DNA from: Mustelus asterias
Taxonomy: Eukaryota
Length of the DNA stretch: 64,000 bases
Assembly (NCBI RefSeq): GCF_964213995.1
Contig: NW_027590140.1
Coordinates: 372,001-436,000, forward strand
Direction: 5' to 3'
A program made the position numbers and the translations under genes. Of this stretch, positions 1-38,741 are shown piece after piece. The notes under the pieces are model-generated. The model worked only from the letters and a program-made list of their open reading frames with translations. It was not told the origin of the DNA and did not search any database. Positions within the stretch are counted from its first letter, which is position 1; every line of letters starts with the position of its first letter.

Positions 1-430
1 TTAGTTATGAGGAGAGATTGGGTAAACTGGAGTTGTTCGCACTGGAAAGACGGAGGATGAGGGGTGACCTAATAGAGGTGTATAAAGTTATGAAAGGCAT
101 AGTTAGGGTGAACGGTGGGAAGATTTTTCACAGGTCGGTGGTGACGTTCACGAGGGGTCATAGGTTCAAGGTGAGGGGGGGAGGTTTAACACGGATATCA
201 GAAGGACGTATTTTACACAGAAGGAGGTGGGGCCCTGGAATGCGCTGCTGGGCAAGGTGGTGGAGGCGGACACACTGGGAACGTTTAAGACTTATCTAGA
301 TAGCCACATGAACGGAGTGGGAATGGAGGGATACAAAAGAATGGTCTAGTTTGGACCAGGGAGCGGCGCGGGCTTGGAGGGCCGAAGGGCCTGTTCCTGT
401 GTTGTATTGTTCTTTGTTCTTTGTTCTTTG
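1..430 (+). mobile_element. CR1 LINE 3' fragment (ORF2 C-terminus + 3'UTR + (TTCTTTG)n tail)
   Basis: ORF 18-299 LFALERRRMRGDLIEVYK...TRGH is the CR1 ORF2 C-terminal motif; followed by GGGCCGAAGGGCCTGTT and a microsatellite tail. Confidence 0.93.
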
Positions 431-464
431 GAGCCACATTGAGTTTTGCAAGTTCCACTCAGTA

Positions 465-905
465 ATATAGAAACATAGGAATCAGGAGCTCAAAGAGGCA
501 AATTCAGCCCTTCGAGCCTGCTCCGTCATTCAATCAGATCATGGCTGATCTCTCCCTGGTGTCAAGTCCACTTCCCCATTGTTTCCTTAAAAAGAGGTCA
601 AGTCGACTTCCCCATCTGTTCCTCATTTCCCTTTAAACATTTTTTGAAAAAATCAGAAATATATCTATCTCCTTTTGAAACCATTCAATATTTCAGAACC
701 CACCGCGTTCTGGGGCAGCGAATTCCAGAGACTCACCACTCTGCGAGAACACTCTCTGCGAGAAGTACGACCTCCTCATTTCAGATTTAAATCCACCGCC
801 TCTCAATCTATACCTGCGTCTTCTTGTTCTACATTGCCCCATAGAGGAATCATTTGGTCGACGTGTATTCCATTAGTTCCCTTTAGACTTTTGTACACCT
901 CGATA
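465..905 (-). mobile_element. Old CR1 3' fragment
   Basis: Reverse strand gives the RVV.LWNSL-type motif and a CR1 3'UTR; paralogous to 20620-20910. Confidence 0.7.
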
Positions 906-1085
906 ACTTCAGCAACTTGTGAGACTATTTCACCTCGCTGTCGACTTCATGTCCTGGCAAATACAGTGGGTGTTGTCATTCGCTGAAAGAACCAAGTATG
1001 TCCCATCTAAACAGGATATTCTGAAGGAAATACTTGTCGCTGATGAAAATGATCTGAGATGAAAATAATAAGCAAAGAGATGTAT

Positions 1086-1386
1086 TTTAAAGTTTATTTA
1101 GTCGTGTGACAAGTCGGCTTGCATTAACATTACAATGAAGTTGCTGTGAAAATCCGCTGGTCACCACACTGGACTGCCTGTTTAGGTAATTAGCAGAAGA
1201 ATTAGCATAGCCAATCCAACTACCGTGCGCATCTTTGGACTCTGGGAAGAAACCAGAGCATTCGCAGGAAACCCACACAGAAACACGAAGAACGTGCAGA
1301 CTCCACACAGACAGTGATCCAAGCCAAGAATCGAATGCTTGTCTTTCGCACTGTGAGGTAACAGTACCAAACACTACACCACCGTC
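1086..1386 (-). mobile_element. HE1-type V-SINE
   Basis: Reverse strand carries the V-domain GTCTGTGTGGAGTCTGCACGTTCT...GTGGGTTTCC and a tRNA-derived head. Confidence 0.85.
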
Positions 1387-1456
1387 CCATAGGGTACGTC
1401 AGTTTAAAAATACAGTTCACCCGGTACCTTTGGAGTCCAGTGGTTTGTGTTCAGTA

Positions 1457-1565
1457 CCCCCCCCCCCCCCGCCTCCCCCCCCACCCCCGCACCCGCACCT
1501 CCCACCCCCGCACTCCCCGCCCCCCCCCCCCCCCCGCCTCCCCACCCCCCGCCCCCCACCCCCCG
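1457..1565. repeat. C-rich low-complexity tract
   Basis: About 110 nt, almost all C. Confidence 0.95.
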
Positions 1566-1834
1566 GGTTATGTTTGCTTTCAATTCCCGCTGAGGAAAAG
1601 AAGAATCATTTGCCGTTTCCAATTTTGAGGTTCATGGACAGGGTGAGCGGAAAGCACCTCTTCCCCTTGGCTGCGAAGTTAATCGTTGCTCTCAGCAAAC
1701 GGTTAAAAGTAATCTGATTTAAACTCTAATGTAAAGCAGATCAGCAAAATCAGCAGAGTGAAGTTTGCAAGATTACTTCAGAGCTGAAAATGTCAAGAAC
1801 AAACACAGAAAGAGAAGAACAGTGAGAGAATGCG

Positions 1835-2005
1835 ATGAGGTGGAGCTGCTGGCATTGTGGGGTGGGCACAGAAATAAATCTAATAACTCCAAGTTAAAGT
1901 ACAATAGGTTTATTCGGAATCAATCGCTCAAAGAAGCAGCGCTCCCTCAGCTGGTGATTCCAAATAAACCTGTTGGACTTTCACCTGGTTGTTGTGAGAC
2001 TTCTA
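1835..2005. mobile_element. Decayed inverted Penelope pLTR remnant
   Basis: Contains both AAGT..AA.AGGTTTATT and its inverse CCAAATAAACCTGTTGGACTTT, shared with the Penelope end at 24.5 kb. Confidence 0.7.
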
Positions 2006-2732
2006 AAAGTAATAGATTACAAATCGCTGAGGACAGCGATGGTGAAGCAAGGTAAAATCTGGAAGAGAATGGATCAGATTTCACCGTTTATACTGACACT
2101 GAATTGTAAAACTTTGAAAATTATCTCACTCTGTAATGAACAATATTTGGAAATATTTATGTCCGGTGTCGCACCCTCGGAACCAAACGTGATAACTGCA
2201 GTGGAGCGTTTGTTGTCATTATCTGAACACACTCAATTATGGATGATGACAAAATAACAAATAGAACGTGGATAAATCAAATTGTAAAACACGCTGCAAG
2301 ATGCTTGTCTGGGGGTTAGAGTTTGATACTTTCACTGCTGTTTTAATTGCAGGTCAGAAAATGAAGATTTATTGCTCTCGTCCAAACCGTGAAAATAAAT
2401 ATCGGATATTTCCTGGAAGAACAGAGAAAGCTCAGTCTCGCTTCGTGTCCGTCCTTTCTGAAGTGAAGACCGTGATCAAATTCAACAGGAAGTTTTATTT
2501 TCATTTCGCAGGAGATTGGGAAACAGGCAAGGTTAAGGTAGTTTAAATGGTGCCGACCCTTCACTGCAGCTCATTTTGTTTCAGACTGGAGATGGAATCT
2601 ATTTGTTACACAGTTCAGGATTACCAGATTCAGCGAAGGAGCAGATTCAAGCCTTCTGATGGCCTTTCCCAGCTCCGTTGCTTCTAATGTATTTCAGTAA
2701 CAATAACAGTAAATAACACACTTACCATGTTG

Positions 2733-2917
2733 TTTAGCGTGGCCGAGTGGTCTACGGCGCTGGACATAATACTCTAGTTGCTGCAATCTCTGGGATTGTG
2801 GTCGGTGCAGACTCGATGGGCCAAAGGGCCTCTTTCTGCACTGTAGGGTTCTATGATTCTATGATAATATAGAATCTTCATACTGCAGAAAAGTTTCTTC
2901 GAATCCCATCGTTGACA
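2733..2917 (+). pseudogene. tRNA-Leu pseudogene split by a CR1/SINE 3'-tail insertion
   Basis: 5' half TAGCGTGGCCGAGTGGTCTACGGCGCTGGA and 3' half TTCGAATCCCATCGTTGACA separated by ~120 nt of retroposon tail; paralog of 60528. Confidence 0.7.
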
Positions 2918-3467
2918 GAATTGTTGTTTGCTTTGGCCCTTGCAGCTGAAGATAAACAGCTCAGATTGAATGTAGCAGTGTGGGTGGTGTCGTTCCTGGT
3001 AGGAAAAAAGAGGAGGAACAGTGCCAATTAAACAGTTGTTGGGGTAATGGAGAATGTGTGCAAGGAGTGTAGTTGCTCCTATAGGGGGAACATACGGATA
3101 CACCGGCTGAATGACTGGCTGCCGATATAAGCAACAGTGAGACTGTATTCCCGGCCTAGGGGTTAAGCTCTGGATAAAAGCAAATTACTGCGGATGCTGG
3201 AATCTCTGAAAGTGAGTCATCTGGATTCGAAGCTACAGCTCTTTTCTCTCCTTACAGATGCTACCTGACCTGCTGAGGTTTTCCAACATTTTCTCATTTG
3301 GTTCCAGGGAGAAATGTGATGAATTTAGATTTTCCAAGTGAAGTTCAAATCCTGTCATGTACGCTTCCCATCATTCCTCATTGTGACTATGTTTTTAGGG
3401 AAAGTTATTTGAATTATAGCAATGGGTACGGAGATGATCATCTCATTACCAATGTGTCACATCAGCT

Positions 3468-3531
3468 TCCCTGAGAGCATAGTGACCAGGATTCGGCGCA
3501 GTGGCCCCACGTTCAATTTCCAGTCATGGAG
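3468..3531 (+). pseudogene. tRNA-Glu remnant
   Basis: TCCCTG..AGTG...AGGATTCGGCGC...GTTCAATTTCCAGTCA; anticodon arm deleted. Confidence 0.55.
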
Positions 3532-3789
3532 TCAATCATCTTTTGTTCAATTCTTCATTTATTGAAAACACGACTCACAGAGCCTGTGAAGGGAGAAACA
3601 AGGTTAATCTTCCAGCTGGATGAACTTGTATCAGAGCTGGAAAAATCAAAGGTGTAACATTAACAATAAACTCTGCAGAAGAGTCAGATGATACACACAC
3701 GACGCACATGTCAAATCTTGCCACTTTCAAGTTGCGTCTTTTAACTTGCTTCCCCTGTGACTGAGGGAAGTGCAGTTGACGTAGTTTGT

Positions 3790-4848
3790 TTTGTTTTAGC
3801 AAAGCACTGAGAAGGTCCCACAAGGGAGACTGATTGAGAATATAGAAGCACTTGGAATTCAGGAAACTGGGCGAGATGGATCGGAAAATGTCTTCATAAC
3901 AGGACACATAGGGTAGTGGTAGAAGTCCGTTCGAATTAATGGAGGTTAGAGCACAGTGGCCTACGAGAGGTTTCAGTGCTGAGACGCTTTTTGTTTGTTA
4001 CTTGCATAAATAATACAGACAATAAGTTGAGGGGAATTATAAGAAGTTTGCAGCTGGTACAAAGATTGTTGGCATGGTTAATATTGAAGACGAAAACCCT
4101 ATGTTAAAGGAAGATCTCGATAGGTTGGTCAGATGGAACGAACAGTGGCAGATGGTGTATTAACCAGATAAGTGCGAGGTGATGCACTTTGGGAGAAATA
4201 ATAACACCGGTGACTATTTAATGAATCGCAGGACATTAGGAAGCTCAGAGGAACATGTGGATTTGGAGTACTTATAAACTGATCCCTGAATTTGGCAGAG
4301 TAGCTGAATAGGAGAGCTACGACGGCATAAGGGACACTTGTTTTTATCAGTCGTGGCACAGAATATAAGGGCAAGGAATTAACGTTGGTGTTGTATAGAG
4401 CGGTGGTTAGGCCAGTGCTGGAGTACTGTGCGCAGTTCTGGCCAGCTCACTATAGGAAGGATATGATTGCACTAACAGGGGAACAGAGCAGATTCACCAA
4501 GATTTTTCCTGGGACGGAGCATTTGAGCGAAAAGGGGGAAGTGGATAGGGTTGGATTGTTTTCCTTTGAGCCGAGAAAGCTGAAGGAGTGCGGGGGCTGA
4601 TTGTGGCATATATGTTTGAGGTTCATGGACAGGGTGAAGGGAAAGCGGATCTTCCCCTTTGTTGAGATGTTAATCACGACGGGGCATAGTTTTAAGCTAA
4701 GGGGCTCGAGATTCGGCAGGTATCTTTTTCACGAAGAGGTTGTTGGAATGTGCAGTACAGCGCCTGGGAAGGTATTGGAGGCCGGAAAAATTACAAACTT
4801 TAAAAAGTGTCGGAATGATCACTTGAAAAATAATAGCATTCAAGGATA
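3790..4848 (+). mobile_element. Old degenerate CR1 ORF2 3' region (its tail resumes at 5588-5695)
   Basis: LYRAVVRPVLEYCAQFWPAHYRKD motif, with many stops and frameshifts. Confidence 0.85.
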
Positions 4849-5588
4849 GTGTTGAGTATAGGGCTAACGGGAGGACTTTGAATAGTGTGGAGGAGCAGAG
4901 GGATCTAGGTGTATGTGTGCATAGATCCCTGAAAGTTGGGAATCAAGTAGATAAGGTTGTTAAGAAGGCATATGGTGTCTTGGCGTTTATTGGTAGGGGG
5001 ATTGAATTTAGGAGTCGTAGCGTTATGTTGCAACTGTACACAACTCTGGTGCGGCCGCACTTGGAGTACTGTGTGCAGTTCTGGTCCCCACATTACAGGA
5101 AGGATGTGGAGGCTTTGGAGAGGGTGCAGAGGAGGTTTACCAGGATGTTGCCTGGTATGGAGGGGAGATCCTATGAGGAGAGGCTGAGGGATTTGGGATT
5201 GTTTTCGCTGGAAAGGCGGCGGCTAAGAGGGGATCTTATTGAAACATATAAGATGATTAGAGGTTTAGATAGGGTGGATAGTGATAGCCTTTTTCCTCTG
5301 ATGGAGAAATCCAGCACGAGGGGGCATGGCTTTAAATTGAGGGGGGGTAGTTATAGAACCGATGTCAGGGGTAGGTTCTTTACCCAGAGGGTGGTGAGGG
5401 ATTGGAATGCCCTGCCAGCATCAGTAGTAAATGCGCCTAGTTTGGGGGCGTTTAAGAGATCCGTAGATAGGTTCATGGACGAAAAGAAATTGGTTTAGGT
5501 TGGAGGGTCACAGTTTTTTTTTTAACTGGTCGGTGCAACATCGTGGGCCGAAGGGCCTGTTCTGCGCTGTAATGTTCTATGTTCTATA
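4849..5588 (+). mobile_element. Young 5'-truncated CR1 nested in the older CR1
   Basis: Open ORF 4878-5498 (EQRDLGV...LVRPHLEYCVQFWSP...RGDLIETYK) and a (GTTCTAT)n tail. Confidence 0.95.
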
Positions 5589-6339
5589 TGGGACACGTGC
5601 TAGAAAATGGGATTAGCGCGATGTTGGTGGCAGTTATTGTCGTTGCACACTCGATGGCCAAACCGTCTCTACTGCGCTGTACGACTCTATGACTAAGCAC
5701 AGTTCACAGTGAGGAGAAATGCAACATGTCCTCTGTCAGTGACCAACGCCTCTGCTGATAATCCGACCTATCAAGGAAAAAAAGGCACAACCAAACTGAG
5801 GAGAAACCGTGATAATGCGGGGATTGCGGGAAGGGATTCAAGTAACATAAAGTAAGAGACAAATGAATGGGGAAAGAAGAGCGAAAGAAAATAGGACAGA
5901 GATTAATATATCAAATGTTGAACTCAATTTTGATTTCTCCTGGCTTTAACGTGTCCCCTTTTCATTTGGTAATAAAGTATTACATTTCTCTTTCAGTTCA
6001 GATGAAAGGTCAGAGAGCTGTCACCTGATCATCTGTTTCTCTCTTCACAGGGCCAAGTCTGATCTGCTGGGGACATGAGATTCACAGTTTTACATTCCAG
6101 TCTGGTGTGGATTTTTAATGAGAAGCTCCTTTAATTGAGAAAAATAAATGCATATAGGATTCTGACTTGAAACAACATAAGCTGCACTCGTGAGTGAGAG
6201 AAACATTTTCAGATTTGACGATGTCCGTCAAACCGAGTTTAAAGAGTTAGGACGTTGTATTTGCATATTTTCAATCCACCAGAATTATTCCTGCATCGAG
6301 GGAATTTTACACTATTGAAACCAAAATATTGGTAGCCAT

Positions 6340-7340
6340 TCCAATTTCGGTTCAGTTGCAAACCGACCTCCTTGCACAGGTCCTGCCGTCTCCCAGAACA
6401 GTTCCAGAGCTCTGGAAGTCTGAAGACCTCACTTCTGCACCTATTCTCCAGACGTGTATTCTTCTGAAGTAACCACCTATTTCTACACTCACTGACACGT
6501 GGCACCGGAGTAATCCAGAGATTACGAACTTCTGTTTTTTATTTTTTATTTGATCTACTTCTTGGCTCCCTGAACTCTGCTTGCAGGATTTCCTCGCTTG
6601 TTCCATTATTTAGTTGAAATCAATACTTACCACGGTTTCTGTATGCCATCTCCACCCCCTCCACCCTCCCCTACCCCCTCCACCTTCAGAAAAAGCTGCA
6701 GCCGTTTACTGACATTCTGACCCTGGCACTAGGGAGGCAGCACACCATCCCAGAAATGTTAAGTCTTTTCTCCATAGGATTGAATCCCTCCCTCTATAGC
6801 AATGCCATTTTCCTCCTCCCCTATTGTGCAGCAGACCCATGCATGTTGCCACGACGTTGACTTTCACTGCTTTCCCCGGCACAGTCAGCCTCCCTCCCGC
6901 TCCACCGCGAAAGAATCAGTAGAGCAGTCCCCCTCCCGCTCCCCGCCCCCCCCACCCCCCTCCCCCACCACCCCCACCGCCCCCCCCCCCCCCCGCCGCG
7001 AAAAGAACAGTAGCCAAAACGTTAAAGCTGCCAGATGACCACAGGCCAGTCCTGAACTACCTTCCTTCCTCTACTCCGCCTCGTGGTCACCCATGGGCTT
7101 TCTGCCTTTTCAACCTTCACCTGCGGTGTGGTCACTTTCGGAACGTGTTATCGACGACTTACTCAGCCATGGGGATGCCCACATTGAATCTTCTCAGCCT
7201 CAGCTTCGAAATGTGGTTAGCCAGTTGCTACGTTTGGACACACTCCCTGAACACCTGGTCACTAGTGAAACCTGAAACTTGCACTGTTGCCATATCGAAC
7301 AGTCGTAGGTGCAAGCTCTCCTGCCATGACTACCCTTAAG
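6340..7340 (-). mobile_element. Decayed CR1 ORF1 (SGNH esterase) region
   Basis: Minus-strand translations MVCCLPSARV, VISGLL, PRVSECRNR...GLQLNR align with the ORF1 esterase at 51222-51617. Confidence 0.7.
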
Positions 7341-7391
7341 CCCATCCCTCTAGCCCCCAACCGCTCCAGACCCGCCTCCACCACCTGCCCA

Positions 7392-7425
<34 letters not shown>

Positions 7426-7617
7426 AAGCCGCAACACCGCACCAATTGGCTGCCTGAACACGTCAGAAAAGTTAGCTGGCAATCGCAGTTTGCATGTTGT
7501 GTATGGGATTCATGGTCATGTGTTGGTAAATGCGGTAATAGGACGTATCAAATTAATTGAATGTGCAGCGTACATTTCCATACAGTATAGAATTTGGACG
7601 TAATATCCAGTACAAAC

Positions 7618-7699
7618 ATGCCTTCTGATCCTCATTGTGATTGCTGGCCCAGAACAATATCCGCCAACCTATTACTTTTGCTCAGGATCCTTCAAACGA
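7618..7699 (+). pseudogene. Putative leader (L1) exon of the TCR V segment
   Basis: ATG at 7618 opens MPSDPHCDCWPRTISANLLLLLRILQT and ends at a phase-1 GTGAGT donor (7700) that is in frame with the V exon; ATA at 7657 may be a mutated original start. Confidence 0.65.
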
Positions 7700-8094
7700 G
7701 TGAGTATTTCGGGCGATTATCACCGTTTTATTTCATTGATGTTTTTCCGATTTTCCTCTAATATTTATTCCCCTCATTGGGGAGGTCTGGCTCCTCGAGT
7801 TTTGCCCTTGGACCAATGAATGCCCCGAGTCCATTTAATGGAAAATCAAACTGAACTATCTCAGTCAGAACGGCCGGTCTGGGGGAGGGATTTTGCTTCC
7901 CCGAGAAGGGTAGCCTTGGCTGATGAATATACCCAGAAGAACATTGCAATGTTAATAGTCTGGGGCCAGTTAGCTAAGGAAATAAATCTCTGAACATTCT
8001 CCCATTTTAATTTTTCTCACGGAATGCAGTCCATCGCTAAGTTTCAGTAGATTAGTGAATTTTAGTGAATTAGTGAAGAGCCCGCGTTATTATT

Positions 8095-8410
8095 TGTATA
8101 TCTGTCTAAGTGTGTTTTTTCCGTGTGTGTGTGTGCATGTGTGTCTGTCTGTCAGTCTGTGTATATGTTTTTGGCTGTGTGTCTGCGCGTGCCTGAGTAT
8201 GTACGGATGCCTTTGTTTGTTTGTGTCCCTGCGTTTTGTGAGTTTCTGTGCGTGTCTGTGTGTAACTGCACCTGTTTTTGTCTGTAGGAGGGAACCTATG
8301 TGGCGAAAGAGAGAATATATTTTTGTGATTGTCTGTGACAGACAGAGAGAGAGAGAGAAAATGTGTGTATTTTTGACTGTAAGAGTGTATGCGGTCGAGA
8401 GAGAGAAAAA
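8095..8410. repeat. (TG)n/(AG)n-rich microsatellite in the leader-V intron
   Basis: Degenerate dinucleotide repeats. Confidence 0.85.
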
Positions 8411-8489
8411 TTGTGCTCAAAACGTATTTCATTTTAAATCAAAAACACATCTAAGAGTTATGTTTGTCACATTCTGTTATTTTTTCCAG

Positions 8490-8796
8490 CGCAGAGCCAG
8501 CTGGATAAACTTTTCCAAAACCCCACAGTAGTAGCAGTGATTGAAGGGGGTACTGTAGTGTTGTGCTGTCACTACCCCACCACATACGCCGCAGCTTACC
8601 TATATTGGTACGTAGAGTACTCGGGATAGGCCTTCAGTAGATGCTGGTCAGACATACTGCTGGTAATGAAGAGAACGCGCCTACATTTGGAAAGCGGTAT
8701 TCTGCTGTACAGGATAAAATGAAAACAAACATCCTTTTGAACATCACAGACACTCAGATTTCTGACTCAGCCGTGTATTACTGCGCGGCGATGAAG
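8490..8796 (+). pseudogene. T-cell receptor alpha/delta-type V segment pseudogene
   Basis: Acceptor TTTTTTCCAG, then QSQLDKLFQNPTVVAVIEGGTVVLCCHYPTTYAAAYLYWYVEYSG* / frameshift / *MLVRHTAGNEENAPTFGKRYSAVQDKMKTNILLNITDTQISDSAVYYCAAMK. Has the Ig-V Cys, WY and DSAVYYC motifs; stops at 8627 and 8638. Confidence 0.88.
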
Positions 8797-8835
8797 CACC
8801 ACGTTACACAGAGCCTTAACACTCGTACAAAAACT
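8797..8835 (+). promoter_or_regulatory. Recombination signal sequence, 23-bp spacer
   Basis: CACCACG + exactly 23 nt + ACAAAAACT directly after YYCAAMK. Confidence 0.85.
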
Positions 8836-8974
8836 AACAGTTCCAGGTGATGTGTGACATTACACGCTCTTTCGGAGAATGTGCGCAGACGCGATGGGCC
8901 AATTGGCCATCATTTGCACTGCAGGGATTGCATGCATTCCATGGATCCCTAATTGTCCTGAAAGTAAATGGCTT

Positions 8975-9270
8975 GCTAATGGGTTGAGGGAGTAGTGTAG
9001 AGTCAATCAGGAGTCGCATGTCGGTCAGGTTAAGGAGAGATGGCGATGTCCTCGCCTGACGCCCTGAAGGACATTGCTGAGTAAATTAATTTTCCATGTC
9101 AAACGATGAAAATTCACGATCACCATTATTGATATTAATTTTCAATCACAGACTGTGTTAATTTAGCGTTTACCAGTTTCAAATGTTAGAATTGAATCAA
9201 TTGGTGTGGAAGATTACCGTGGCCCTCTGACTAATGCGCGGAGTGACATTGTCACATGCCCACTGTCTCC
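8975..9270 (-). mobile_element. Decayed tRNA-derived shark SINE
   Basis: GAGTCAA.CA...CCTGAAGGACATT; related to the 14920 element. Confidence 0.5.
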
Positions 9271-10875
9271 TCGATAAGGGAAGTTATTTTCGAGACATTG
9301 CAACAGTGACTGCATTGCGAAAGTACCAGATTGGCTGTCACATGCTTTAGGATAACTCGTGGTGCTGAAATGTATTTGTTTCCAGTTTCCAATTCTCCAA
9401 AATTGATAAGCTTTTAATGATTTATCTGAGGAATTTGCTGCTGATAATGAACACTATAAAGCGCTAAAAGTTTTTCTTCGTCTCGAAAGCTGACGTCACA
9501 CGAAGTGTTGGTGTTTCATATGCCCTGTTAAAACATTTCCCCTTCTCTGTTCTGATTTTGATTCGTCTACTTTATGTTTCAATTGCTTCAAATGGAATTA
9601 GATAATCTGATCATCAGAATGAATTTAGGAGCGGAAATCTGTGGTCTCAGTAGCATTTGCAGTAGCTGAATATTTTTCCATGAATCATCTTCAGCAGAGA
9701 ATTACACATCCTTACACTCGGTCACTGTTTCTATCAGGAGTTACATGGAGATGGGAAACTACCGTTAGAACCGGAAGTGCACATGTATCTGACTGAGGTC
9801 ACTGGGACCGCAACAGCCAATCTCAGGTTATGACAGCAGCGAGAAGCTCCGCCTCCCGACCTCGCTTTATAATAACGTTAGCGGTTAAACTGACAACGGT
9901 GCATTTTTTTTTCCTCAAGGAATCTTCATTCGGGTAAAGGTGACAGAGTGAGCATTTCATTCATTGGAAGACTGATTTTGCAAGTTATGGTCACAGCGAG
10001 GACGTAAGCTAAAAAAAAAACTCTGCTGAACAAGTGCTAACTGAAAGTTTAGCAGAATTGTCCATAAGTCAAACTAGAAACTTATAAATCCCTTTGAATG
10101 TGTGTAATATTAATCCCGGATTCTAAAAATCCTGCATGAACTAAACATTGATGAAAGATCCGTTATTTATAATATATTCCCTGCAAGTTATCAATGTGTG
10201 TCACATTCTGTGTTCGCTATGACGTACATACGACGTCAGTGAACTTCAATATATTGCTGTTAAACAAAAGGAATTCGAGTTTTCAGCAGTGTCAGTGATT
10301 ACTGTGCGTTCACACACACTCAGTGTGTGAATCGCGGCATTGTGCATTGATATCATTGAATGATAAATGTTACTTCCTTCTGAATATCATTATCCCGTTT
10401 GAAATTTCAATCTTTGCAGTTTGTGCATTTGGATCAGTTACTGTCCGATTGTCAGGAGACTGGTGGCTGTACCCTACGCCAAACACAGAATGTCATGACA
10501 TATGAGCGGGAGCAAGAGACACCGAGCCTCAATACTGGTAGAACCAGCGGTGACATATTGTCAGTGTCTGCAGGTTTCTAAGTAAATAGGCGTAAAGACA
10601 AACAACAATGTGGTTATTCGGTATCTGTGCAATGTTTGGAGCGTTTATTACAGGTAATTAATTTGAGTGCAATTTTGAACTAAACGTGAACAGTACTTGG
10701 GGTAAAACGTGAACACTGTGGGGTAAAATAGTAAAATCTACATGTTTAGATTTGTAAACGATACCATAATTTGGTCTTTCTATGTCAGGTTTCGTGAAAA
10801 TTGCATTGGCGTCGAATTTGCAGCCAACACGCCGTCACCCTGATTAAGGATGCCATGTTGATCGTTATTGTGTCA

Positions 10876-10949
10876 GTCGCTGTGGCACAATTGGTTAGCG
10901 CGTTCGGCTATTAACCGGAAGGTTGGTGGTTCGAGTCCATCCAGGGACG
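10876..10949 (+). tRNA. tRNA-Asn body with ATT anticodon (probable pseudogene)
   Basis: Full-length Asn sequence with loop CT-ATT-AA; mismatches in acceptor and D stems; T-tract downstream. Confidence 0.75.
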
Positions 10950-23419: not shown

Positions 23420-23975
23420 AAAAGGTAAGTGTCGATATTGAGCAGAGAATAGATGCGTTTGTGCAAGGAATGCATAAGCTGGGATGTCGGTGCAGGCAAT
23501 GATTGGAAGGAAAATTGCATTTCGGTCTTTACTAACGGCAGACTGGAGTCCAAGTATAACGAAGTGTTGCTGAAGTTGCACAAGGTTTTGTTGAGACCAC
23601 GTGTTGAATATTCTGTGCAGATATGATATTCACATTTAATAAAGGATATGTTTGCATTGGAAACGGTGCAGATAAGGTTCAGCAGATGATCCCTGGGATG
23701 ATGGAGTTGTCGTATGATGAGAGGCTGAGGAAATTGGGCTGGAAGTCTCTGGAGTTTGGAAGAATGAGAGGCGATTTCATTAAACCTACAAAAGTCTGAT
23801 TGGGTTTGACAGGGTGGAGGCTGAGAGAGTTCTTCTGCTTGTCCGGAAATCTAACCCACGGCAGTTCAGTCTCAGGAAAATGGGCTGATCATTTCGGCCT
23901 AAGAAAAGGCGAAATTACTTCACTGAAATGGTTGTGAATCTTTGAAATTCTCTATGCCAGACAGTTATGGAAGCT
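23420..23975 (+). mobile_element. Old CR1 ORF2 3' fragment (paralogs 42920-43560, 57080-57760)
   Basis: Degenerate LRPHVEYSVQ/RGD motifs. Confidence 0.7.
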
Positions 23976-24438
23976 TTTTTATTAACGTTCAGAGGCTTAT
24001 TAATGATAAAAGTGCCTGTCACTCACTTTGAGTGAATAATTAACAAGCTATTTTATTCAAATAGCCAAGAGCTTTAAGTAAACAAGTAACATGTTAATTA
24101 AGGTACGGTTCGACTGAAATGCAGTTCAAATAATACTAGGAACATTCATTAACAAAAAAACTGTAATAACAGAATTTCAGTCACTCTCAAAGAAATTATA
24201 CAAACAGCCTCGATGGGATTCAGAAGATTTTGGAGTTCTTCAGTAACTGTGCGGTGTCTGTAAGGTCTTTCTAACTCCGCATCCTTCTGTTAGATAGTTT
24301 TCTTAAGCGAATTTTAATCTGTCAGGGGTGGAGAGCTGCTGTAGAGGAAAATGTTTTTTTGACTGGCTGCCCTGGCCTCTGGAGATGGTCACGCAAGATA
24401 TTATCGAGTGATGACTGTTCCTCTGGCCTTTTCTTACC

Positions 24439-26540
24439 TGATGTGGAGATGCCGGCGTTGGACTGAGGTAAACACACTCAGAGTTTTAACAACACCAGGT
24501 TAAAGTCCAACAGGTTTATTTGGTAGCAAATGCCATTAGCTTTCAGAGCGCTGCAGCTTCGTCAGATGGAGTGGATATCTGCTCGCAAACAAGGCACACA
24601 GAGATAGAAAATCAAGTCACAGAATACTGATTAGAATGCCAATCCTTACAACCAACCTAGTCTCAAAGATACAGACAATGTGAGTGGAGGGAGCATTAGG
24701 CACAGGGTAAAGAAATGTATATTGTCTCCAGACAGGAGAGCCAGTGAGATTCTGCAAGTCCAGGAGGCAAGCTGTGGGGGTTAGCGAAAGTGTGACATGA
24801 ATCCAATATCCCTGTTGAGGCCGTCCTCATGTGTGCGGAACTTGGCTATCCATTTCTGCTCAGCGACTCTGCACTGTCGTGTTGGCCGCCTTGGAGAACG
24901 CTTACCCGGAGATCAGAGGCTGAATGCCCGTGACTGCTGAAGAGAACAGTCTTGCCTGGTGATTGTCGAGCGGTGTTCATTCATCCATTGTCGCAGTATC
25001 TGCATGGTTTCCCCAATGTACCATGCCTCGGGACAGCCTTTCCTGCAGCGTATCAGGTAGACAACGTTGGCCGAGTTGCAAGAGTAGGAACCGTGTAGCT
25101 GGTAGATGGTGTTCTCACGTGAGATGATGGCATCCGTGTCGATGATCCGGCACGTCTTGCAGAGGTTGCTGTGGCAGGGTTGTGTGGTGTCATGGTCCCT
25201 GTTCTCCAGAAGGTTGGGTAGTTTGCTGCGGACAATAGTCTGATTTAGGTTGTGTGGTTGTTTGAAGGCAAGAAGTGGGGGTGTGGGGATGGCCTTGGCG
25301 AGATGTTCATCTTCATCAATGAGATGTTGAAGGCTCCGGAGGAGATGCCGTAGCTTCTCCGCTCCGGGGAAGTACTGGGCGACGAAGGGTACTCTGTCCA
25401 CTGTGTCCCGTGTTTGTCTTCTGAAAAGGTCGGTGCGGTTTTTCGCTGTGGCGCGTCGGAACTGTCGATCGATGAGCCGAGCGCCATATCCTGTTCTTAT
25501 GAAGGCATCTTTCAGCGTCTGGAGGTGTCTGCTGCGATCCTCCTCATCAGAGCAGATCCTGTGTGTGTGGAGGGCTTGTCCGTATGGGATGGCTTCTTTA
25601 ACGTGTTTAGCGTGGAAGCTGGAGAAGTGGAGCATTGTGAGGTTATCCGTGGGCTGGCGGTATAGTGAGGTGCTGAGGCGAGCGTCCTTAATGGAGATGC
25701 GTGTGTCCAAGAATGCAACCAATTCCGGAGAGTAGTCTATAGTGAGTCTGATGGTGGGATGGAACTTATTGATGTCATCATACAGTTGTTTCAGTGATTG
25801 TTCACCACGAGTCCAAAGGAAGAAAATGTCATCGATGTATCTAGTGTATAGCATCGATTGAAGGCCCTGTGCAGTGAAGTCGTCTTGGTGGAAGCTGTGC
25901 ATGAAGAGGTTGGCATATTGAGGTGCGAATTTGGTCCCCATGGCTGTTCCGTATGTCTGGATGAAGAACTGGTTGTTGAAGGTGAAGACAATGTGGTCCA
26001 GGATGAAGCGGATGAGTTGTAAAATTGCATCTGGAAACTGGCAGTTGTCGGCGTTGAGCACTGAGGCCGTTGCAGCAATGCCATCGTCGTGGGGGATGCT
26101 GGTGGTAGAGCGCCGAGACATCCATTGTGACGAGGAGTGCTCCTGGTTCAACTGTTCCATGTGTGTTGAGTTTCTGTAGGAAGTCCGTAGTGTCGCGACA
26201 AAAGCTGGGGGTTCTTTGTACCATGGGTTTCAGGGTGCCCTCGACATAGCCGGAGAGGTTCTCGCACAGCGTCCCATTGCCCGATACGATGGGACGGCCG
26301 GGTGTGTTTCCCTTGTGTATCTTTGGGAGGCAGTAGTGATCTCCAACGCGGGGAGTACGTGGGCTGAGAGCACGGAGGGTGCTCTGAAGGTCCGGATCAA
26401 GGGTTTTGATCGGAGTGCTGAGTTGACGGGTGTGTTCTTTGGTCTGATCTGTGGGTAACTGTCTGTAGTGTTCCTCGTTGTTCAGTTGTCGGTACACTTC
26501 TTTGCAGTAATCCGTTCTGTTCAGTATGACAATGGCCTCT
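24439..26540 (-). mobile_element. Penelope-like element: RT + GIY-YIG, 5'-truncated, frameshifted, with 3' pLTR
   Basis: ORFs 25841-26497 (YCLPKIHK..PGRPIVS, TMDVSALY) and 24913-26160 (GTAMG, RYIDDIF, NVVYLIRC...YIGET). Confidence 0.93.
24533..24569 (-). ncRNA. Minimal hammerhead ribozyme motif in Penelope pLTR
   Basis: CCAT-CTGACGA-(stem II, mutated)-GAAA-GC-TA-ATGG; stem I CCAT/ATGG. Confidence 0.65.
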
Positions 26541-26634
26541 GAGTGCGGAATTGTCTCCTCAACTCAGTCCTAAATGGTTGACACACCATCCGGATAATGT
26601 GAGCCCAGTTCAAAGCACTCCAGACTCCAGCAAG

Positions 26635-26720
26635 AGGCGGGGGAGGAGTGGGGGTGGGGGTTGGACGGGGTGCTGCGGGGGCCGAGGGGGGGAGGGGCGG
26701 CGGCGGGGAGAGGGTCGGTG
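26635..26720. repeat. G-rich low-complexity tract (G4-capable)
   Basis: Multiple runs of 4 or more G. Confidence 0.8.
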
Positions 26721-27266
26721 GAAACAAGCTCTCAGCATGTACATTGTCAAACAGTCTCGCCGTTCCAGACTTTTCAATGGGATAACATTTCATTATTCCA
26801 AACCCCAGGGAGAACAAGGCAACAGCAATGAATCTCTCCTCCAAGGGCAACTGCCTCATCACAACAATCAATCCAGTGAATCTTGGTTACACAAACAGCG
26901 CGAGAATAGAGGGAAATAAGAGCAAAGTATGGAAAGTTGACAGAGGCACAAAGGGAGACTCAGACAGTGAAAGAGACTGATGTCGATATACAGAAACAAA
27001 GAGACAGATATAGACAGTGAGTGGGGGAGTCAGCCACATCCAATGAATGAATAACAATGTAGACAAAGCCAGCGGCCGGAGTCCAGAAGCATTGGGTCGT
27101 TGAATCGTTGACTCGGGACAAAGAGAATGTTCAACAGCATAGTCAACTTTTGAAAACATCTCGAATTCCTTGAGAGGCAGTTTCCCAAACCGGACCGTGA
27201 GTAAACTCACCCTGCCCTGTCCACGGCAAAGAAATGAGCAAGACTTCGCCATTGCGAACAACAACG

Positions 27267-27356
27267 GGGCTTGTCTGGGATTTGAACCCAGGGCCTCTCC
27301 CAAACTTGCAAATCATAACACACAAAGCGAGAATCATGTCCCTAGACCAACGAGCC
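27267..27356 (-). tRNA. Intron-containing tRNA-Pro body, anticodon reads TGT (probable pseudogene)
   Basis: GGCTCGTTGGTCTAGGGACATGATTCTCGCTT-TGT-G[TGTTATGATTTGCAAGTT]TGGGAGAGGCCCTGGGTTCAAATCCCAGACAAGCCC. Confidence 0.8.
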
Positions 27357-28467
27357 ACTGCTGCAAGATCGGCCCCAAGACAGATATTATATTTCCATAT
27401 CAATCTGATCTGACAACTGCAGTGCAAGTGGGAAAAACTCAGGAAGCCAGGCAGCATGTGCACACAGGGAAAGGAATCTCCTCTTACACCTTCATAACTT
27501 TTCTTTTCAACTGGTAAAGGTAGGAAATGTAGGAAGTTTTAAACAAGTGAAATCCAGGAGGTAGAAAGCATAACAACAGGAAAGGGCTCTGATAGGGTAC
27601 AATTCAGGAGTGATAAATGAACAAGTACTGTGTTGTCCATGGCCTGAGAGTGAGGAAAGCAGAGTATCACAGAATGTTTGCACCGCAGCATGAGACCATT
27701 CACAAGATCTTTGAAGCAGTCGCGTGTCCTGTGGATAATAGGGAGCCGTTGGGTGTACTGTACAGTGATTACACAGGAGCTGCAGTGATGAGGTTGGTGG
27801 ATTTTGGAAATTGAGAGGAACACATGAGCAGCTTGTGTGACTATTTCACCTCATTGCCGCTTTTATACGGCAGCGAAAAGTAATCGTTGTTGCCACTGGA
27901 TGAAGGACTAACTTATGTTCAACCTGAACAGAACATTTTGAAAGAGAGACTTGCCTCTGGTGGAAATAGATCTGAGATGAAAATAATGAAATATAAAATG
28001 AAGTAAATTAGATTAAACATCCAACGTATTAGAAATATTGGGACGTCCAACCTATTAGAAATATTGGGTTTACAGTAAGTGACATGAACTGATGCTGTGA
28101 TCGCAGATATAGAACTGGGACCACCATCACACCGAGTGAATCCGCTGTCTGTTTAAATGTTGATCAATGAAAACTTTTAATTATATTGCACAATGGAACA
28201 TACGGGAACTCAGTCAATAAGCACCTTTCACTCACAAATAACAGAAAAGGTCAATTTCATCTCGCAACTTTCAGCCTTTTGCCATCTTCTGTACATTTAC
28301 CATGAAGATTTATAAAGTAAGTGAATAGAGTTTGTGATGGTGAAAAAAAAAACGCGTTCACACCCTTGGGATACGGAAGCACAGTGACGCACACAGAGGA
28401 GCAAACATAAGTATAGACCACGCGAGACAGAGGACTAACGAGCGACAAAACGGGAGCGGAGCAGAAA

Positions 28468-28539
28468 GGGAATATAGCTTCGGGATAGAGCATTTGACTG
28501 CAGGTCACGACGTTTCTGCATTCAAATCGAATGCCTGCT
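28468..28539 (+). pseudogene. tRNA-Cys pseudogene
   Basis: TATAGCT...TAGAGCATTTGACTGCAG; 3' half decayed. Confidence 0.65.
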
Positions 28540-28931
28540 TCCGCGCTTAATTGCTTTTTTTTCAATTAAAACTGCCCTTCATTGACTGGAAAGTGCTTTG
28601 TGACGTCTGCAGGTCGGGATAGGTTCTATATAAATGCAATTATTTCATGATCTTCATTCCAAGTCCTCTGTTACTGAGCCCAGTCAGTGGGAACAGTCTG
28701 TCCCTCCCTGCTCTTTCAAACGGCCCTTTTCCATGTTAGGAGAAGGGATTAACCATTACACCACAACAACACTGTGGGGTAAAATAATAAAATATACATG
28801 TTTAGATTTGTAAACGATGCCATCATTTGGTCCTTCTGTGTCAGGTTTGGTGAAAATTGAATTGGCGTCTAACTTGCAGCCAACACGCTGTCACCCTGAT
28901 TTAGGATGCCTTGTAGGTTCCAGTTGTGTCA

Positions 28932-28948
28932 GTCTCTGTGGCGCAATT

Positions 28949-28981
<33 letters not shown>

Positions 28982-29005
28982 ATGGTTCGAGACCATCCAG
29001 GGACG
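28932..29005 (+). tRNA. tRNA-Asn(GTT), apparently intact
   Basis: Canonical body; T stem GATGG/CCATC fully paired; TTTT terminator follows. Confidence 0.92.
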
Positions 29006-31037
29006 GCGTTTTCAGTTTTTTTTCCACTCCATCTGCTTTCATTGTCTCTCGGTTTTTGAGTGTCACTGAGTCCTTGGGCAACATTTAAAAAAAAACTTAT
29101 CGTGTGTTTCTGCCTCTACTATTAGCCGACGTTAGTTTATTGAACATTTATCTCTGACATATTATTTGTAACAATTTATATATTTCAAAATTATTAAACT
29201 CAATAACTGAACTCGAAACTTTAACCTATGTTTGATCTTGGGTTTCCATTTTCCTGCCCATTCCTCTTCTTTCTCAGATAGATCAGGAATCTGTCTGTCC
29301 CAACCTGAAATGTGTTCATTGAGGGAAATACACAGCAAGTCGGCAAAGATCAGTGGAATGAGGACTGAGTTAAACTTTCACCAGAATGCTGCTTTTATAA
29401 TTGAAAAGTCCTGAGATTGAGAGCAGAGGGTTCACATTTGAGGCGTTTCAGTTCTTTGAGAGATGAATGCCTGCCGTGTTTTACAAGGTACGTTTTCACA
29501 GGATCAGTAATGATGAGGTTGGTGGGTTTTGGAAATTGAAAGTTACACGTGAACAGCTTGTGGGACTATTTCATTTATCATTGCCGTCTTGCCGTTTTAT
29601 GTTCTGATAAAACCTGTATTTATAATACAAGCATGAGATGGTGGAAATTCTCAGCAGGTTTGGCAGAATCTGTGCACACGCATCAAATTCTAAACACTTC
29701 CATGTGTCACCTGTGTTCCTGAAGTATACTGATCCTTGTGTTCAAAAAAAGTTGATAAAAACTTTTCAAAGCAGCTGCCCCATCTCTAAGTGTTATTAAA
29801 TATCAAGGAATCACATTATCTCACAGCCATGTGGCATTTACACTCCCCCAATGCTTGAATAATATTCTGCAACTGCATTCATGGAGAAAGAGATAAAATT
29901 CGGGACAAATGTTATTTTCTGAATCTTATGTTAGATCAATGACTCTGGCACATGGCTAAGGTTTGCAACCGAATTATATTTCAATAAAACAAGGATTTAA
30001 ATTGCAATCAGACTGCACGGTTTGATATTCTCGGCCGGTCACATTGGTCATGAGCAGAGTTTCTGGATTGTCGGAGTTAACATGTTCATTTCATATACGA
30101 TGAGTTCCCCGATTCAAAATAAGGTCGAAACATTATCGAAATTAATATTTTTTTGAATTTTCCCCGATTCTTGATCGCTGTTGCATATGAACTGGATTGG
30201 AGCAGACAAAATGTAAATTTGTTCTTTACCATTTATTGAAAAAGAATACCCTCAGCAAAGTCGCCGCTGGCATACTGTTGCTTTTCTGCTTCCACTGTCA
30301 CACTCACGATGCAGCTGATGCAGGCTAGATGGCTCAGCCATGGCAAATGAGTGATGTTCCGGTTCGACAATGGCAAAAGTGCCTCAGCAAGGTACTCTGG
30401 GCTTACATTTTCTGGTTAATGTTTCAGCCATTCATGACTGAGATATGGAGATATTTCTTCACTCCAAGGCTTGTGAATCTTTGGAATTATTTGACTTATT
30501 ATTGTCACATGTATTAGCATACAATAAAAAGCATTGTTTCTTGCGCGCTGTACAGACAAAGCATACCGTTCATAGAGAAGGAAACGAGAGAGTGCAGAGT
30601 GTAGTGTTACAGTCATAGCCGGGATGCTAGAAATTGAATTGAAGCATTGTGAGAGAGTTTAAAAGAGTTAGAATGAAGTTTTAGAAGCATAGAACGAGAG
30701 TAAAAGATAGAGTTAGAAGGTATGCTGGGCACAGCTTCCAAGAGTTCGCCTCGCTCGGACGCCATCTTGCATCAATTCTGTAGCGGCACAGAGGTTTGTG
30801 AATCTTCAGTTGATGAAGACTTTGAGGTGGAGAGTTGTGGGAATCTAAGTGAATGAAGGGCTGTTGGTATAAGCTGGGAAATTGGGATTGAGGCTGTGGA
30901 TCTGCCTTGATTCAGTCATGGAGGAGGCTCAATGGTTCATGTGACCCAATTCTACTCCATTGATGCTGTTCATTGGCAATACCAGATACGGCATCAATAG
31001 GTTCTGCTGGTACCATTGATGAGCTCAGGGCAGTAAT

Positions 31038-31237
31038 GATGTGGAGTTTCCGGCGCTGGACTGGGTTAGGCACAGTAAATAATCTCACAGCACCAGGTTA
31101 AAGTCCAACAGGTTCATTTGGTAGCACAAGCTTTCGGAGCACGCCCCTTCATCACGTGAGTCACCTGATTCGGACAGTGCTCCGAAAGTTCGTGCTACCA
31201 AATAAACCTGTTGGACTTTAACCTGGTGCTGTGAGAG
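31038..31237. mobile_element. Palindromic Penelope pLTR remnant (paralog of 12958)
   Basis: ~75-bp inverted arms CTCACAGCACCAGGTTAAAGTCCAACAGG... / ...CCTGTTGGACTTTAACCTGGTGCTGTGAG. Confidence 0.85.
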
Positions 31238-31408
31238 AACTGACTGGGCAGTGATAGTAGTTGAAGCGTGTGATCGAATCTCATCCAGTTCCTTAACTTT
31301 ATGAAATACCTTTGTTATCACACAAATTCCAACGGAACGCAAATGTAAATTATTGTTTGCAATTGATGGGTTTGTGGAACCAGTTTCCTTGAATCATTGC
31401 ATCGCAAT

Positions 31409-31480
31409 GTTTCTGTGGTGTAGTGGTTGTCACATTCGCCTTACACACGAAAGATCCCTGGTTTGATCGCGGCAGAAATA
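31409..31480 (+). pseudogene. tRNA-Val(TAC-reading) pseudogene
   Basis: Paralog of 13309; damaged anticodon stem and T arm. Confidence 0.7.
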
Positions 31481-31547
31481 CTTTCATCATAAACAGAAAA
31501 GGTTGGAAGGTCTAATGAGACATGACAGCATCTGTGGAGAGAGGAAA

Positions 31548-31588
31548 GAGCCAAATTTTCAAGTCTGGATGACCCTTCGTCAGAGCTC
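31548..31588 (-). ncRNA. Minimal hammerhead ribozyme motif, family 2
   Basis: GAGCT-CTGACGA-AGGGTC-ATCCA-GACTT-GAAA-AT-TT-GGCTC. Confidence 0.6.
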
Positions 31589-32649
31589 CGGACTCGAAAC
31601 GATGGCTCTATTCTCTCTCGACAGCTGCTGTCAGACCTGCTAAGATTTTCCAGCATTTTTCTATTTTTGTTTTAGGTTCCAGCATCCGCAGTATTTTGCC
31701 TTCACAAAAAAAAACAAAAGCTTTTAATTTCAGAGGGATTCGACTACTGGAATTATTTGCGCGTTTGTCACTAAACATGAACTGACCGACTGAGTATTCC
31801 TAGTATTTTCTGATTGTAAAGTGAGGAATCACTGAGCGAAAGGGAAAAAAAAGGATTTTTGTGATAGGGCACAAAGCAGGATGGATTACATGACACCATG
31901 AATGGTGGAAAAGACAACATCGAGGAAGTGATGGTGGAGCCTGGGTGGTCTAGTGGTTCAGAGTCAATGTTTCCATAGCTATGGCCCGGAATTGATGATA
32001 AACTGTTAACTAAACAGAGCACTTTGCTCAGCACGGACTGACTTTCTGGAGATGAAAGTATCTGAACATAAAGGAAGAAGGCATAATTTGCTTCAGTTGG
32101 TCATAAGATGTTAGAATGACTGTGTGACAATGTCAGTAGCAAAAGTGACTTGAAATGAAGCGGTGGAGACAGAGATGGTTATCAAAGAATTTCAAATCTC
32201 TAATATTAGCTTTCCTGGCATGCCGTGGTCAGGTTTCATCGCCATGTTCCACGTTGGAGTACCAGGCAAGTAGCGAATAACTTCTTATTTAACTCTTCAT
32301 TAAACGAAAGCACGCCTCACAGTGTCTGTTAAGGGAGAAACAAGATCAATCTTCAGCTGTATGAATTGTATTAGAGCCGGAAAAATCAGAGATGTAACAA
32401 TAACAAACTGTGAAGAAGAATGACACGGCAGACATTTATCACAAAAACAACTGACACACATGTCAAATTCTTCCTCTTTCAAGTCTCATCGATTGACTCC
32501 TTGTTCTCCACCTCGGATATTTCCACTTCCATCAAATATCACCCACCTGAAAATTCAATCTCTTCTTCGCTCCACTGATGATGATACACCAACTCCACGC
32601 TGGGCGCAGGAATTGGCTCCAATGCTCAGTGGTTGCATCAGTTGGACAG

Positions 32650-33363
32650 TTTAAAGTTTATTTATTAGTGCCACAATTAAGCTTACTTTAACACCGCAAT
32701 GAAGTTTCTGTGACAATTACGTCATCGGCAGAACCGGCACCTTCTCGGGTAAATTGACAGCTAATTTAGCATGGCCAATGGACCTAACCAGCACATCTTT
32801 CACTCTGTGGGAATAAGAAGGGGCACCCGCAGGAAACCCACGCAACACGGGGAAAGCATGCAGACTCTGCACAGACAGTAACCAATGCCGGGAATTGAAA
32901 CCGGGCCCCTGGCGCTGTGAGGCATCAGTGCCACCATGTTGCCCAGAAAGATCTTATCTTGTTCATAAACGGAGAAAGAGCAGACAATGTTTGTGAAGGT
33001 GACCTAGTTCATTTTTAATTGATTAGAAATGGATGTCGCTGCCGGCCAGCATTTATTGCCCATCCTGGTTGCCCTGGGACAGTTAGGATCAAACACTTTA
33101 CTGCAGCTCTGGAGTCAGTGTAGGCCAGGCCGGATAAGGGACGGCAGGTTTCCTTCCGTAAAGCACATTACCGAACTCAATGTTTGTTTTTCCGACAATC
33201 GACAATGGTTTCATGGTCATCAGTAGATTCTTAATTCCAGATAGTTTTTATTGAAAAACAATTCTACAACGTGCCGTGGCAGGATTCAAAAGCGGGGCCC
33301 CATAAAATTGGATGAGTTTCTGGATAAATAATCTCGCGATAATATCACCAGGCCATCGTCTTT
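32650..33363 (-). mobile_element. HE1 SINE + second SINE (paralogs of 14560-15257)
   Basis: Colinear with the unit A copies. Confidence 0.8.
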
Positions 33364-34023
33364 CCTAATATAAGCGTTTGTCTTGAGAGATTTGGGTGTG
33401 TTTGTACAAGGAACGCAGGAAGATAGCATGGTGGTGCAGCAAACAATAGGAAGGGAATAGCATTTTGGTTTTTATTGCCAACAGATTGCTGTAGAAGAAT
33501 AAAAACACCAATTTACATTTATACAGGGTTTTGTTGGGAGCAAGTGTGAAATATTCGGTGCAGTTCTGATATCGACAATGCTTTTTATTTTCGAAAAAGG
33601 CTACCCTTCCATCGGAGACGGTCCACTGGGTAGGTTCCTGTGATGAGAGAGTTCTCCTGGGATGAGAGGCTGTGTAAATTGTGCTGAAATTCCCTGGAGT
33701 TTAGAAGACTGAGAGACAATCTTATTGAACCTACAGAATACTGAGACATTGTTTCCCAGTCTCAGATGAGGACTCATCGGAGAACTGACACACAAACACA
33801 TCCAGCCAAGACTCTAATTCTTAACTTTAATTGCATATTTGAAATGAATATATATTATACCATGTGATATGGATGATATGAATATTCATTAAATAAATAA
33901 TGTTGACAACACCTGACAACAGTCGAGCGGCAACACTCGAGAAATATTTTTATTGTTGCCTCTGTTCACAAGCCGGAACTGCGCGACAATGAATGCTTAT
34001 GGGGAAAATAAAAGTACAACCAC

Positions 34024-34096
34024 CGCCTCTGGATGGTACTGAGCCACCAAACATTTGCTTAAAGTCGAACGCAATAACGAATTCCGCAATTAAGAC
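34024..34096 (-). pseudogene. tRNA-Asn pseudogene
   Basis: Paralog of 15915. Confidence 0.6.
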
Positions 34097-34479: not shown

Positions 34480-34551
34480 CGGGGGCACTCGGAATTGAAC
34501 CGATGGCCGTTTGATCTGCAGTCAAATGCTCTACCACTGAGCTACACCCCC
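34480..34551 (-). tRNA. tRNA-Cys(GCA) variant (G73, T-stem mismatch)
   Basis: Paralog of 16375; discriminator base changed. Confidence 0.8.
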
Positions 34552-38668: not shown

Positions 38669-38741
38669 CGCCCAACGTGGGGCTCGAACCCACGACCCTG
38701 AGATTAAGAGTCTCATGCTCTACCGACTGAGCTAGCCGGGC
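38669..38741 (-). tRNA. tRNA-Lys(CTT), intact
   Basis: Identical to 19191-19263. Confidence 0.97.

Follow-up and report, generated by a model that had tools for sequence, protein, structure and literature searches.

The TCR alpha/delta genes of elasmobranchs have been described as a translocon (Flajnik et al. 2025, PMC12227049), and in the literature compared here shark TCR genes are translocons, with only the antibody genes arranged in clusters. Great white shark and stingray have TCR V genes and pseudogenes dispersed among IgM clusters, on great white chromosome 27 over 8-17 Mb; in stingray and catshark one delta model is placed directly upstream of alpha, and one great white NAR-TCR entry is labelled germline-joined (PMC12227049, table S1). 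tRNAs are mentioned neither in the main text nor in the two supplements of that study (PMC12227049).

Here we describe a V pseudogene in a 64-kb stretch of DNA from Mustelus asterias (hereafter the window), which is part of the unplaced contig C108. It is very probably a dead TCR alpha/delta V that is present in 25 copies and was carried along as a neutral passenger of segmental duplications within the shark IgH/TRA/TRD complex. The scattering of TCR V genes among shark IgH clusters is already known; what appears to be new is the amplification with tRNA units and a TCR-delta organised in many clusters.

Results

Anatomy of the V pseudogene

The initial annotation described a V architecture that is hidden from the ORF track, and all its elements were confirmed: a leader with a phase-1 donor, a V exon and a 23-RSS (Table 1). 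The leader is split by a phase-1 intron with GT donor and AG acceptor and is in frame with the V exon. Its ATG is likely ancestral, since 15 of the 23 copies in which a leader can be aligned retain it. The two frame pieces of the V exon match the Pfam V-set independently (E 1.8e-5 and 2.8e-7) and cover its positions 1-38 and 51-92. With the V profile of this study, which may contain family members, so that Pfam is the independent test, the pieces scored 47 and 31 bits versus at most 2.1 bits in 15 shuffled windows. The last Cys codon is 15 nt away from the RSS, a distance that is 12-15 nt in 42 other V genes. The two stops and the 1-nt frameshift noted earlier in FR2 are indeed present, and a functional V gene was rejected on these lesions.

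Table 1. Features of the V pseudogene and of its surroundings, in positions of the window.
Feature	Position	Strand	Remarks
Leader exon	7618..7699	+	82 nt, 27 codons + 1 nt, phase 1, open; ATG at 7618
Leader donor	7700	+	GTGAGT
Leader intron with GT/GA microsatellites	7700..8489	+	790 nt; AG acceptor 8488-8489, TTCCAG ending at 8489
V exon, TRAV/TRDV-type pseudogene	8490..8796	+	307 nt vs 308 in open copies
Conserved codons of V exon	Cys 8567, Trp 8606, Cys 8782	+	correspond to Cys23, Trp41, Cys104
FR2 lesions	8627..8640	+	TAG 8627-8629, 1-nt deletion ~8627-8630, TAG 8638-8640
RSS with 23-nt spacer	8797..8835	+	weak heptamer CACCACG; nonamer ACAAAAACT
Second heptamer CACAGAG, derived	8807..8813	+	13 nt from nonamer ACAAAAACT; in 3/25 copies
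Stranded leader exon of second V	10608-10653	+	15 codons + 1 nt, GT donor
Stranded leader plus first 46 nt of intron	10608..10699	+	V exon of second V gone
Breakpoint between V-array fragment and tRNA unit	10699..10715	.	12-nt insert with letters of both sides
tRNA array, ~18-19-kb units with LINE pieces	10876..62756	.	12 ARAGORN calls, 14 Rfam calls
Duplicated block: V, stranded leader, tRNA-Asn/Ile/Cys	1..17791	.	collinear, 92-96%, with C71 10.95 Mb

Further identities were considered and rejected. Non-rearranging VJ genes of the UrIg or NCR3 type have a J-like strand in the V exon and no RSS; they are excluded by the absence of an FGxG motif after the last Cys and the presence of an RSS. 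The supporting V-delta of NAR-TCR is preceded by a NAR V cassette, an arrangement that is visible in the gene models, and falls in a supporting clade; the window V has a leader of its own, falls in a separate clade and is not preceded by any NAR V over 64 kb. The second heptamer CACAGAG, which was overlooked in the earlier sequence-only reading and whose C at 8809 is the identical base in a contig of the DNA run X4, would give a 12-type RSS as in IgL-like V genes. This was rejected since the heptamer occurs in only three of 25 copies, has a spacer of 13 nt and lies 25 nt from the Cys codon. The top RSS-like score in the window belongs to CACAGTG-23-AAAAAAAAC at 57445-57483 (minus strand); no V adjoins this site, which is taken as a chance match.

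The V had also been assigned to the TRA/TRD type, and a quick protein tree and the PDB ranks support this type; a shark origin is supported by the gene models nearest to the TCR constant exon (see below). An open copy of the family (P0001) scores 65.7 bits against Pfam V-set, and TCR alpha chains rank first among its single-domain PDB matches. The best single-domain protein match is a gar Ig-domain protein (51%; HMMER, 1759 hits), and there is no close shark relative among the 150 best of these 1759 hits. No matches were obtained when the family V or an intact TRAV served as query in word-index protein searches. The tree was calculated without bootstrap from 73 V domains and 96 columns; 64 of the domains are from the assembly (86 minus near-duplicates) and nine are named ones. 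The window V family forms its own clade in it (SH-aLRT 99), inside a group (SH-aLRT 87) that holds a named hamster TRAV and bony-fish V domains; IgH V, NAR-TCR V and the one IgL V fall apart from it. Since the tree contains no labelled beta or gamma V, the exclusion of TRB and TRG rests on linkage and the PDB ranks.

A family of 25 copies

A DNA search of the assembly identified 25 matches with 83-100% identity on 17 contigs (25/25 candidates scored). The 20-Mb scaffold C71 carries six of them, C108 and C90 have two each and C75 has one; the remainder are spread over unplaced contigs. Altogether, the copies represent 18 distinct V+RSS sequences, which differ by up to 18%. All except one are disabled (24/25), by a frameshift, a stop, a lost ATG or a lost donor, and the lesions differ between family branches: frameshifts are found in L001-L007, L012, L021 and L023-L025, the ATG is lost in L008-L011 and the donor GT has become AT in L013-L021. 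The sole intact copy, L022 (C71, 19.22 Mb), kept ATG, splice sites and frame; it borders a V array and tRNA genes at a distance of 0.8 Mb from a TCR-alpha C gene. A TCR C gene is present on the contig of 11 of the 25 copies, 90 kb to 3 Mb away. A tRNA lies within 2.1-9.0 kb of the V in all nine contexts read (of the 25 copies), and a dense V array had two tRNA calls in 130 kb. The region is also represented, with many variants, in contigs of four public DNA runs, which come from three samples of one study. The copy that has diverged most is L024 (C75, 16.896 Mb). Its leader is deleted, and in 240 kb of C75, a separate scaffold of 19 Mb, it is the sole V, accompanied by 11 tRNA calls; provisionally, it is a probable true orphon.

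The window and its contig

The description of the V as lone was not confirmed. No second V exon, C exon, J or D segment was found in the 64 kb of the window, but the window contains the stranded leader of a second V (Table 1), the next V fragment follows just past the window end, and the V has 24 further copies. In sister copies (C71 15.27 Mb, C849 and C90) the counterpart of this leader is followed by a 94-95-nt intron and a V exon of another family. The isolation of the window V thus arose at a duplication breakpoint, where the leader of its neighbour was cut off and fused to a tRNA unit. The identical junction is present in four of four copies examined of the window clade (10 members). Movement by segmental duplication, as proposed earlier, is borne out by this shared junction and by the block that is collinear with C71.

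The tRNA array comprises tRNAs for Asn, Ile, Cys, Lys, Thr and Leu, and LINE reverse-transcriptase frames are scattered between them. The initial annotation saw tRNA-cluster sequence on both sides of the V. This is right for the downstream side, where every tRNA of the window is located; ARAGORN and Rfam detected none in window positions 1-8490, and the nearest upstream tRNAs are found only ~7 kb before the window start. The tRNA-Asn copy at 10876-10949 has the anticodon ATT in the window and at 668 kb of C108 and GTT in the C71 copies; ATT is a mutated anticodon of the window clade. An open frame of 1004 codons (48328-51342, minus strand), which encodes endonuclease and reverse transcriptase domains, is a young LINE, and an inverted 819-nt copy is present at 53463-54281.

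We read 484 kb of C108. Besides 23 other V exons or fragments, NAR-TCR-type V among them, this part of the contig contains four IgM-type C exons (520-523 kb) and a VH (507 kb). No J, D or TCR C was found in these 484 kb, and the place of the unplaced C108 in the complex therefore rests on its gene content. The window is a tRNA tract, with 22 calls at 341-469 kb of the contig. The nearest other V exons or fragments are located 64 kb upstream and 56 kb downstream of the window V, the latter being a fragment that begins 521 bases beyond the window end. With respect to the constant genes, the mapping suggested earlier shows no TCR C on C108, and the six family copies on C71 share this scaffold with three delta C and one alpha C. 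These data support a position of the window V inside the dispersed IgH/TRA/TRD complex; of the two options offered earlier, the dispersed edge of the TRA/TRD locus is the closer one, although the window does not lie at the edge. The initial annotation further stated that flanks consisting of a dense V array would make the V a routine pseudogene. This is half the case, as V genes resume 0.5 kb past the window and the dense array begins ~95 kb downstream. Both findings make the window V a routine pseudogene; taken by itself it is of interest only as a dated marker of the reshuffling of an antigen-receptor chromosome by tRNA arrays.

The V could instead be a true orphon that moved from the TCR locus into an unrelated tRNA array. 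We consider this very unlikely: the V does lie in a V-free gap of ~120 kb within the tract of 22 tRNA calls, on a contig without a TCR C gene, and the solitary copy on C75 has comparable surroundings, but C108 carries the many other V exons and fragments together with the IgM cluster, and six members of the family are on the scaffold that also has delta and alpha C genes. Only the C75 copy is orphon-like.

TCR-delta units and TCR-alpha loci

A motif search identified the TCR transmembrane exon 19 times, and two further matches look like chance. The first exon of delta C was found at 19 loci on the same contigs (L191-L209; 112/112 candidates scored), three of them on C71 (7.14, 11.04 and 12.27 Mb) and 16 on unplaced contigs. 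All 19 first exons are open and have AG and GTAAGT ends (14 distinct sequences), and the 12 transmembrane exons that were translated are open, too (12/12). The units are assigned to delta because D segments with 12/23 signals and few J segments lie upstream. J segments with a 12-RSS, located by script in fetched DNA, precede C in 12 of 12 units examined (of 19), with one to four J each; a search for J segments with the strict RSS+FGxG pattern gave 0 matches. Repeated units of V, D, J and C, as they define miniclusters, are thus present in the surroundings.

Altogether, 18 D elements were found, 17 of them on delta C contigs. Eleven are unrearranged, six are joined to V and one is joined to D (7/18 joined). 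The six V-D joins (L251, L257, L263, L264, L265 and L216-L218) represent four junctions. One of these is common to the three units on C96, C119 and C436, which combine a NAR-TCR V with a diverged C class, and is therefore likely germline. The join at 11.02 Mb of C71 is unique, and the sister units on C90, C110 and C111 keep that D unjoined. One pre-joined V-D on C71 uses a broken V, which belongs to a family other than that of the window V. Unique V-D joins could be somatic. In L259 (C138, 216-219 kb) delta J and C are preceded by an IgM-type VH and by an IgH-type D that has been joined to a delta D, which looks like a fixed IgH/TCR-delta hybrid unit.

The delta C loci form eight groups, 84-98.6% alike, and these differ in D segments and upstream genes. 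Some pairs are 99.5-100% alike, and such near-identical copies may be haplotype or assembly duplicates; the three collinear copies on C71 and the eight sequence groups set the lower limit. In short-read contigs of one sample, one delta C codon occurs in three variants, and the diverged class is present as well; the sample may be the assembled animal, and the result is not independent of that individual. The dN/dS of delta C exon 1 is 0.80, a value that decides nothing on use. The named proteins nearest to the TCR constant exon are Mustelus asterias gene models (81-97%). A word-limited search returned a single related protein from Heptranchias and another from Pristiophorus, which is weak evidence. 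Automated annotation labels the delta genes 'alpha chain-like', and a multi-cluster delta pattern could for this reason stay hidden in other sharks.

A second constant type, alpha, is present at 18.42 Mb of C71 and on C546 (57/57 candidates scored). Since it occurs twice, each time behind at least 32 J segments, there are two TCR-alpha loci (L171-L182, C71 18.37-18.43 Mb; L183-L185, C546); their C exons are 73% alike in protein. Delta C was absent from C546, and none lies closer than 6 Mb to the alpha C of C71 (112/112 candidates scored); the canonical TRA/TRD translocon, with one delta C upstream of the alpha J array, is accordingly not what we observe.

Other receptor genes were encountered in the same searches. 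One TRAV (L070-L075) is intact and has a leader, a CRE-like promoter site and a good RSS; there are 13 equal-scoring matches to it on 13 contigs, and its V exon is identical in the six matches read. C71 and many unplaced contigs carry dozens of equal-scoring C1-set exons, which are likely IgM clusters amplified on the same contigs. At 60.15 Mb of C13 (L186), an IgL V runs directly into a J-like FGGG motif; this is a germline-joined light chain of the kind known in sharks.

Divergence of the family and quality of the RSS

The pooled dN/dS of the V family is 0.95, and the mean distance is 0.094 in the exon versus 0.108 in the 3′ flank. By these measures the family evolves neutrally. In 16 of 17 comparisons with L022, dN falls short of dS, and in most it also falls short of the flank distance; weak selection may therefore have acted in the past. 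The RSS is almost unchanged across up to 0.26 dS, and we count this against the passenger reading. One stop is common to several branches.

For the evaluation of the RSS, 42 of 53 open V genes with a scorable RSS were used, after family members and poor matches had been dropped. Heptamer position 4 is A in 40 of these 42 genes and C, as in the window, in none. A loss of 3 nt inside a CACACTG-type heptamer would explain CACCACG. The heptamer is just as odd in the intact copy L022, and the founder may for this reason already have rearranged poorly. None of the 25 copies is rearranged. The window V makes no protein, and from its signal it probably is a poor RAG substrate. The earlier suggestion that it could still be cut by RAG is therefore weakened, although CAC and nonamer are retained as stated.

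The conserved signals bear on another alternative, namely that the copies have been kept for use, as RAG-cleavable decoys or as gene-conversion donors for the TCR-delta clusters. CAC and the 23-nt spacer are kept in 24-25 of the 25 copies, the V exon is still open in four of the 24 disabled ones, copies lie as near as 90 kb to delta C genes, the pre-joined V-D on C71 shows that a broken V, of another family, has been joined, and the stop shared between branches hints at exchange. A role of this kind is nevertheless very unlikely. Exons diverged nearly as far as their flanks with the dN/dS given above, the window RSS outscores only five of the 42 open V genes, and the family has no rearranged copy and contributes to none of the six V-D joins.

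Discussion

We regard the window V as a neutral passenger of duplications on the grounds of its anatomy and lesions, copy number, neutral divergence, the breakpoint and the linkage to V, NAR-TCR and IgM genes. The mechanisms of repair and exchange proposed below are deduced only from sequence. The founder V would have been located at the border of a V array and tRNA genes, as L022 still is. A repair event with a short templated insert may then have removed the next V and attached the tRNA-Asn/Ile/Cys unit; templated inserts at breaks are the pattern of polymerase-theta end joining. Unequal exchange between tRNA/LINE units could subsequently have spread the block of at least 17.8 kb, and the branches would have decayed separately. 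That process of duplication is likely to have copied entire D-J-C(delta) units as well.

From the arrangement of these genes, we lean slightly towards a wider interpretation. TCR-delta would have left the single-translocon plan in this shark, with duplications driven by tRNA/LINE arrays giving rise to 8 to 19 working D-J-C(delta) miniclusters that lie apart from the two TCR-alpha loci and owe their specialisation to the genes upstream of them (IgH-like V, IgM VH or NAR-TCR). V-D and IgH-D/delta-D joins would have been fixed by germline RAG activity in seven of 18 D elements, and the window V would serve as a tracer of the process. If this is true, a multi-cluster delta with several recent independent germline joins means that the switch to the cluster plan is possible for a TCR locus; allelic and locus exclusion with many delta C genes becomes testable, and the locus is a living counterpart to the way in which marsupial TCR mu arose.

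It is extremely unlikely that the multiplicity (25 V, 19 delta C and two alpha C) is mostly false duplication in the assembly, to which the location of most copies on unplaced contigs and several pairs 99.5-100% alike would point, since the V copies diverge up to the 18% reported above, the eight delta C groups have different D segments and upstream genes with three copies collinear on C71, the two alpha C exons are no more than 73% alike in protein, and three codon variants plus a diverged class occur in one sample, possibly the assembled animal.

In the literature searched (titles and abstract beginnings), multi-cluster TCR-delta in sharks or tRNA arrays in the complex are absent. Several TCR constant genes were reportedly described in the horned shark in the 1990s, which may bear on novelty.

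The passenger reading and the multi-cluster delta can be set against four described systems. As far as described, the elasmobranch complex resembles the one reported here in that its IgM clusters are interspersed, across megabases, with TCR V genes and pseudogenes of either orientation, together with NAR-TCR cassettes; it differs in that here one V has been amplified 25-fold along with tRNA units, and the 19 copies of delta C lie apart from alpha (PMC12227049). The opossum TRMV-OR2 orphons share with the window V the non-functional V with RSS, LINE-like repeats and copies made by duplication, whereas the window V is on a contig full of receptor genes, and only the copy on C75 fits the comparison, provisionally (PMC2275272). 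Shark Ig miniclusters (PMC2193156, PMC6795676) and marsupial TCR mu (PMC2275272) consist, according to these reports, of repeated V-D-J-C units, some pre-joined in the germline and some with IgH-like or double V domains, as the delta units do; unlike them, the units described here have an ordinary TCR-delta C, with one to four J found per unit and a large shared V pool nearby. Newts are described as having delta outside alpha, two alpha loci and more than one delta C, which is the same in our shark, whereas they have at most two delta clusters on another chromosome, in contrast to up to 19 on the chromosome of alpha and IgM here (PMC12698447).
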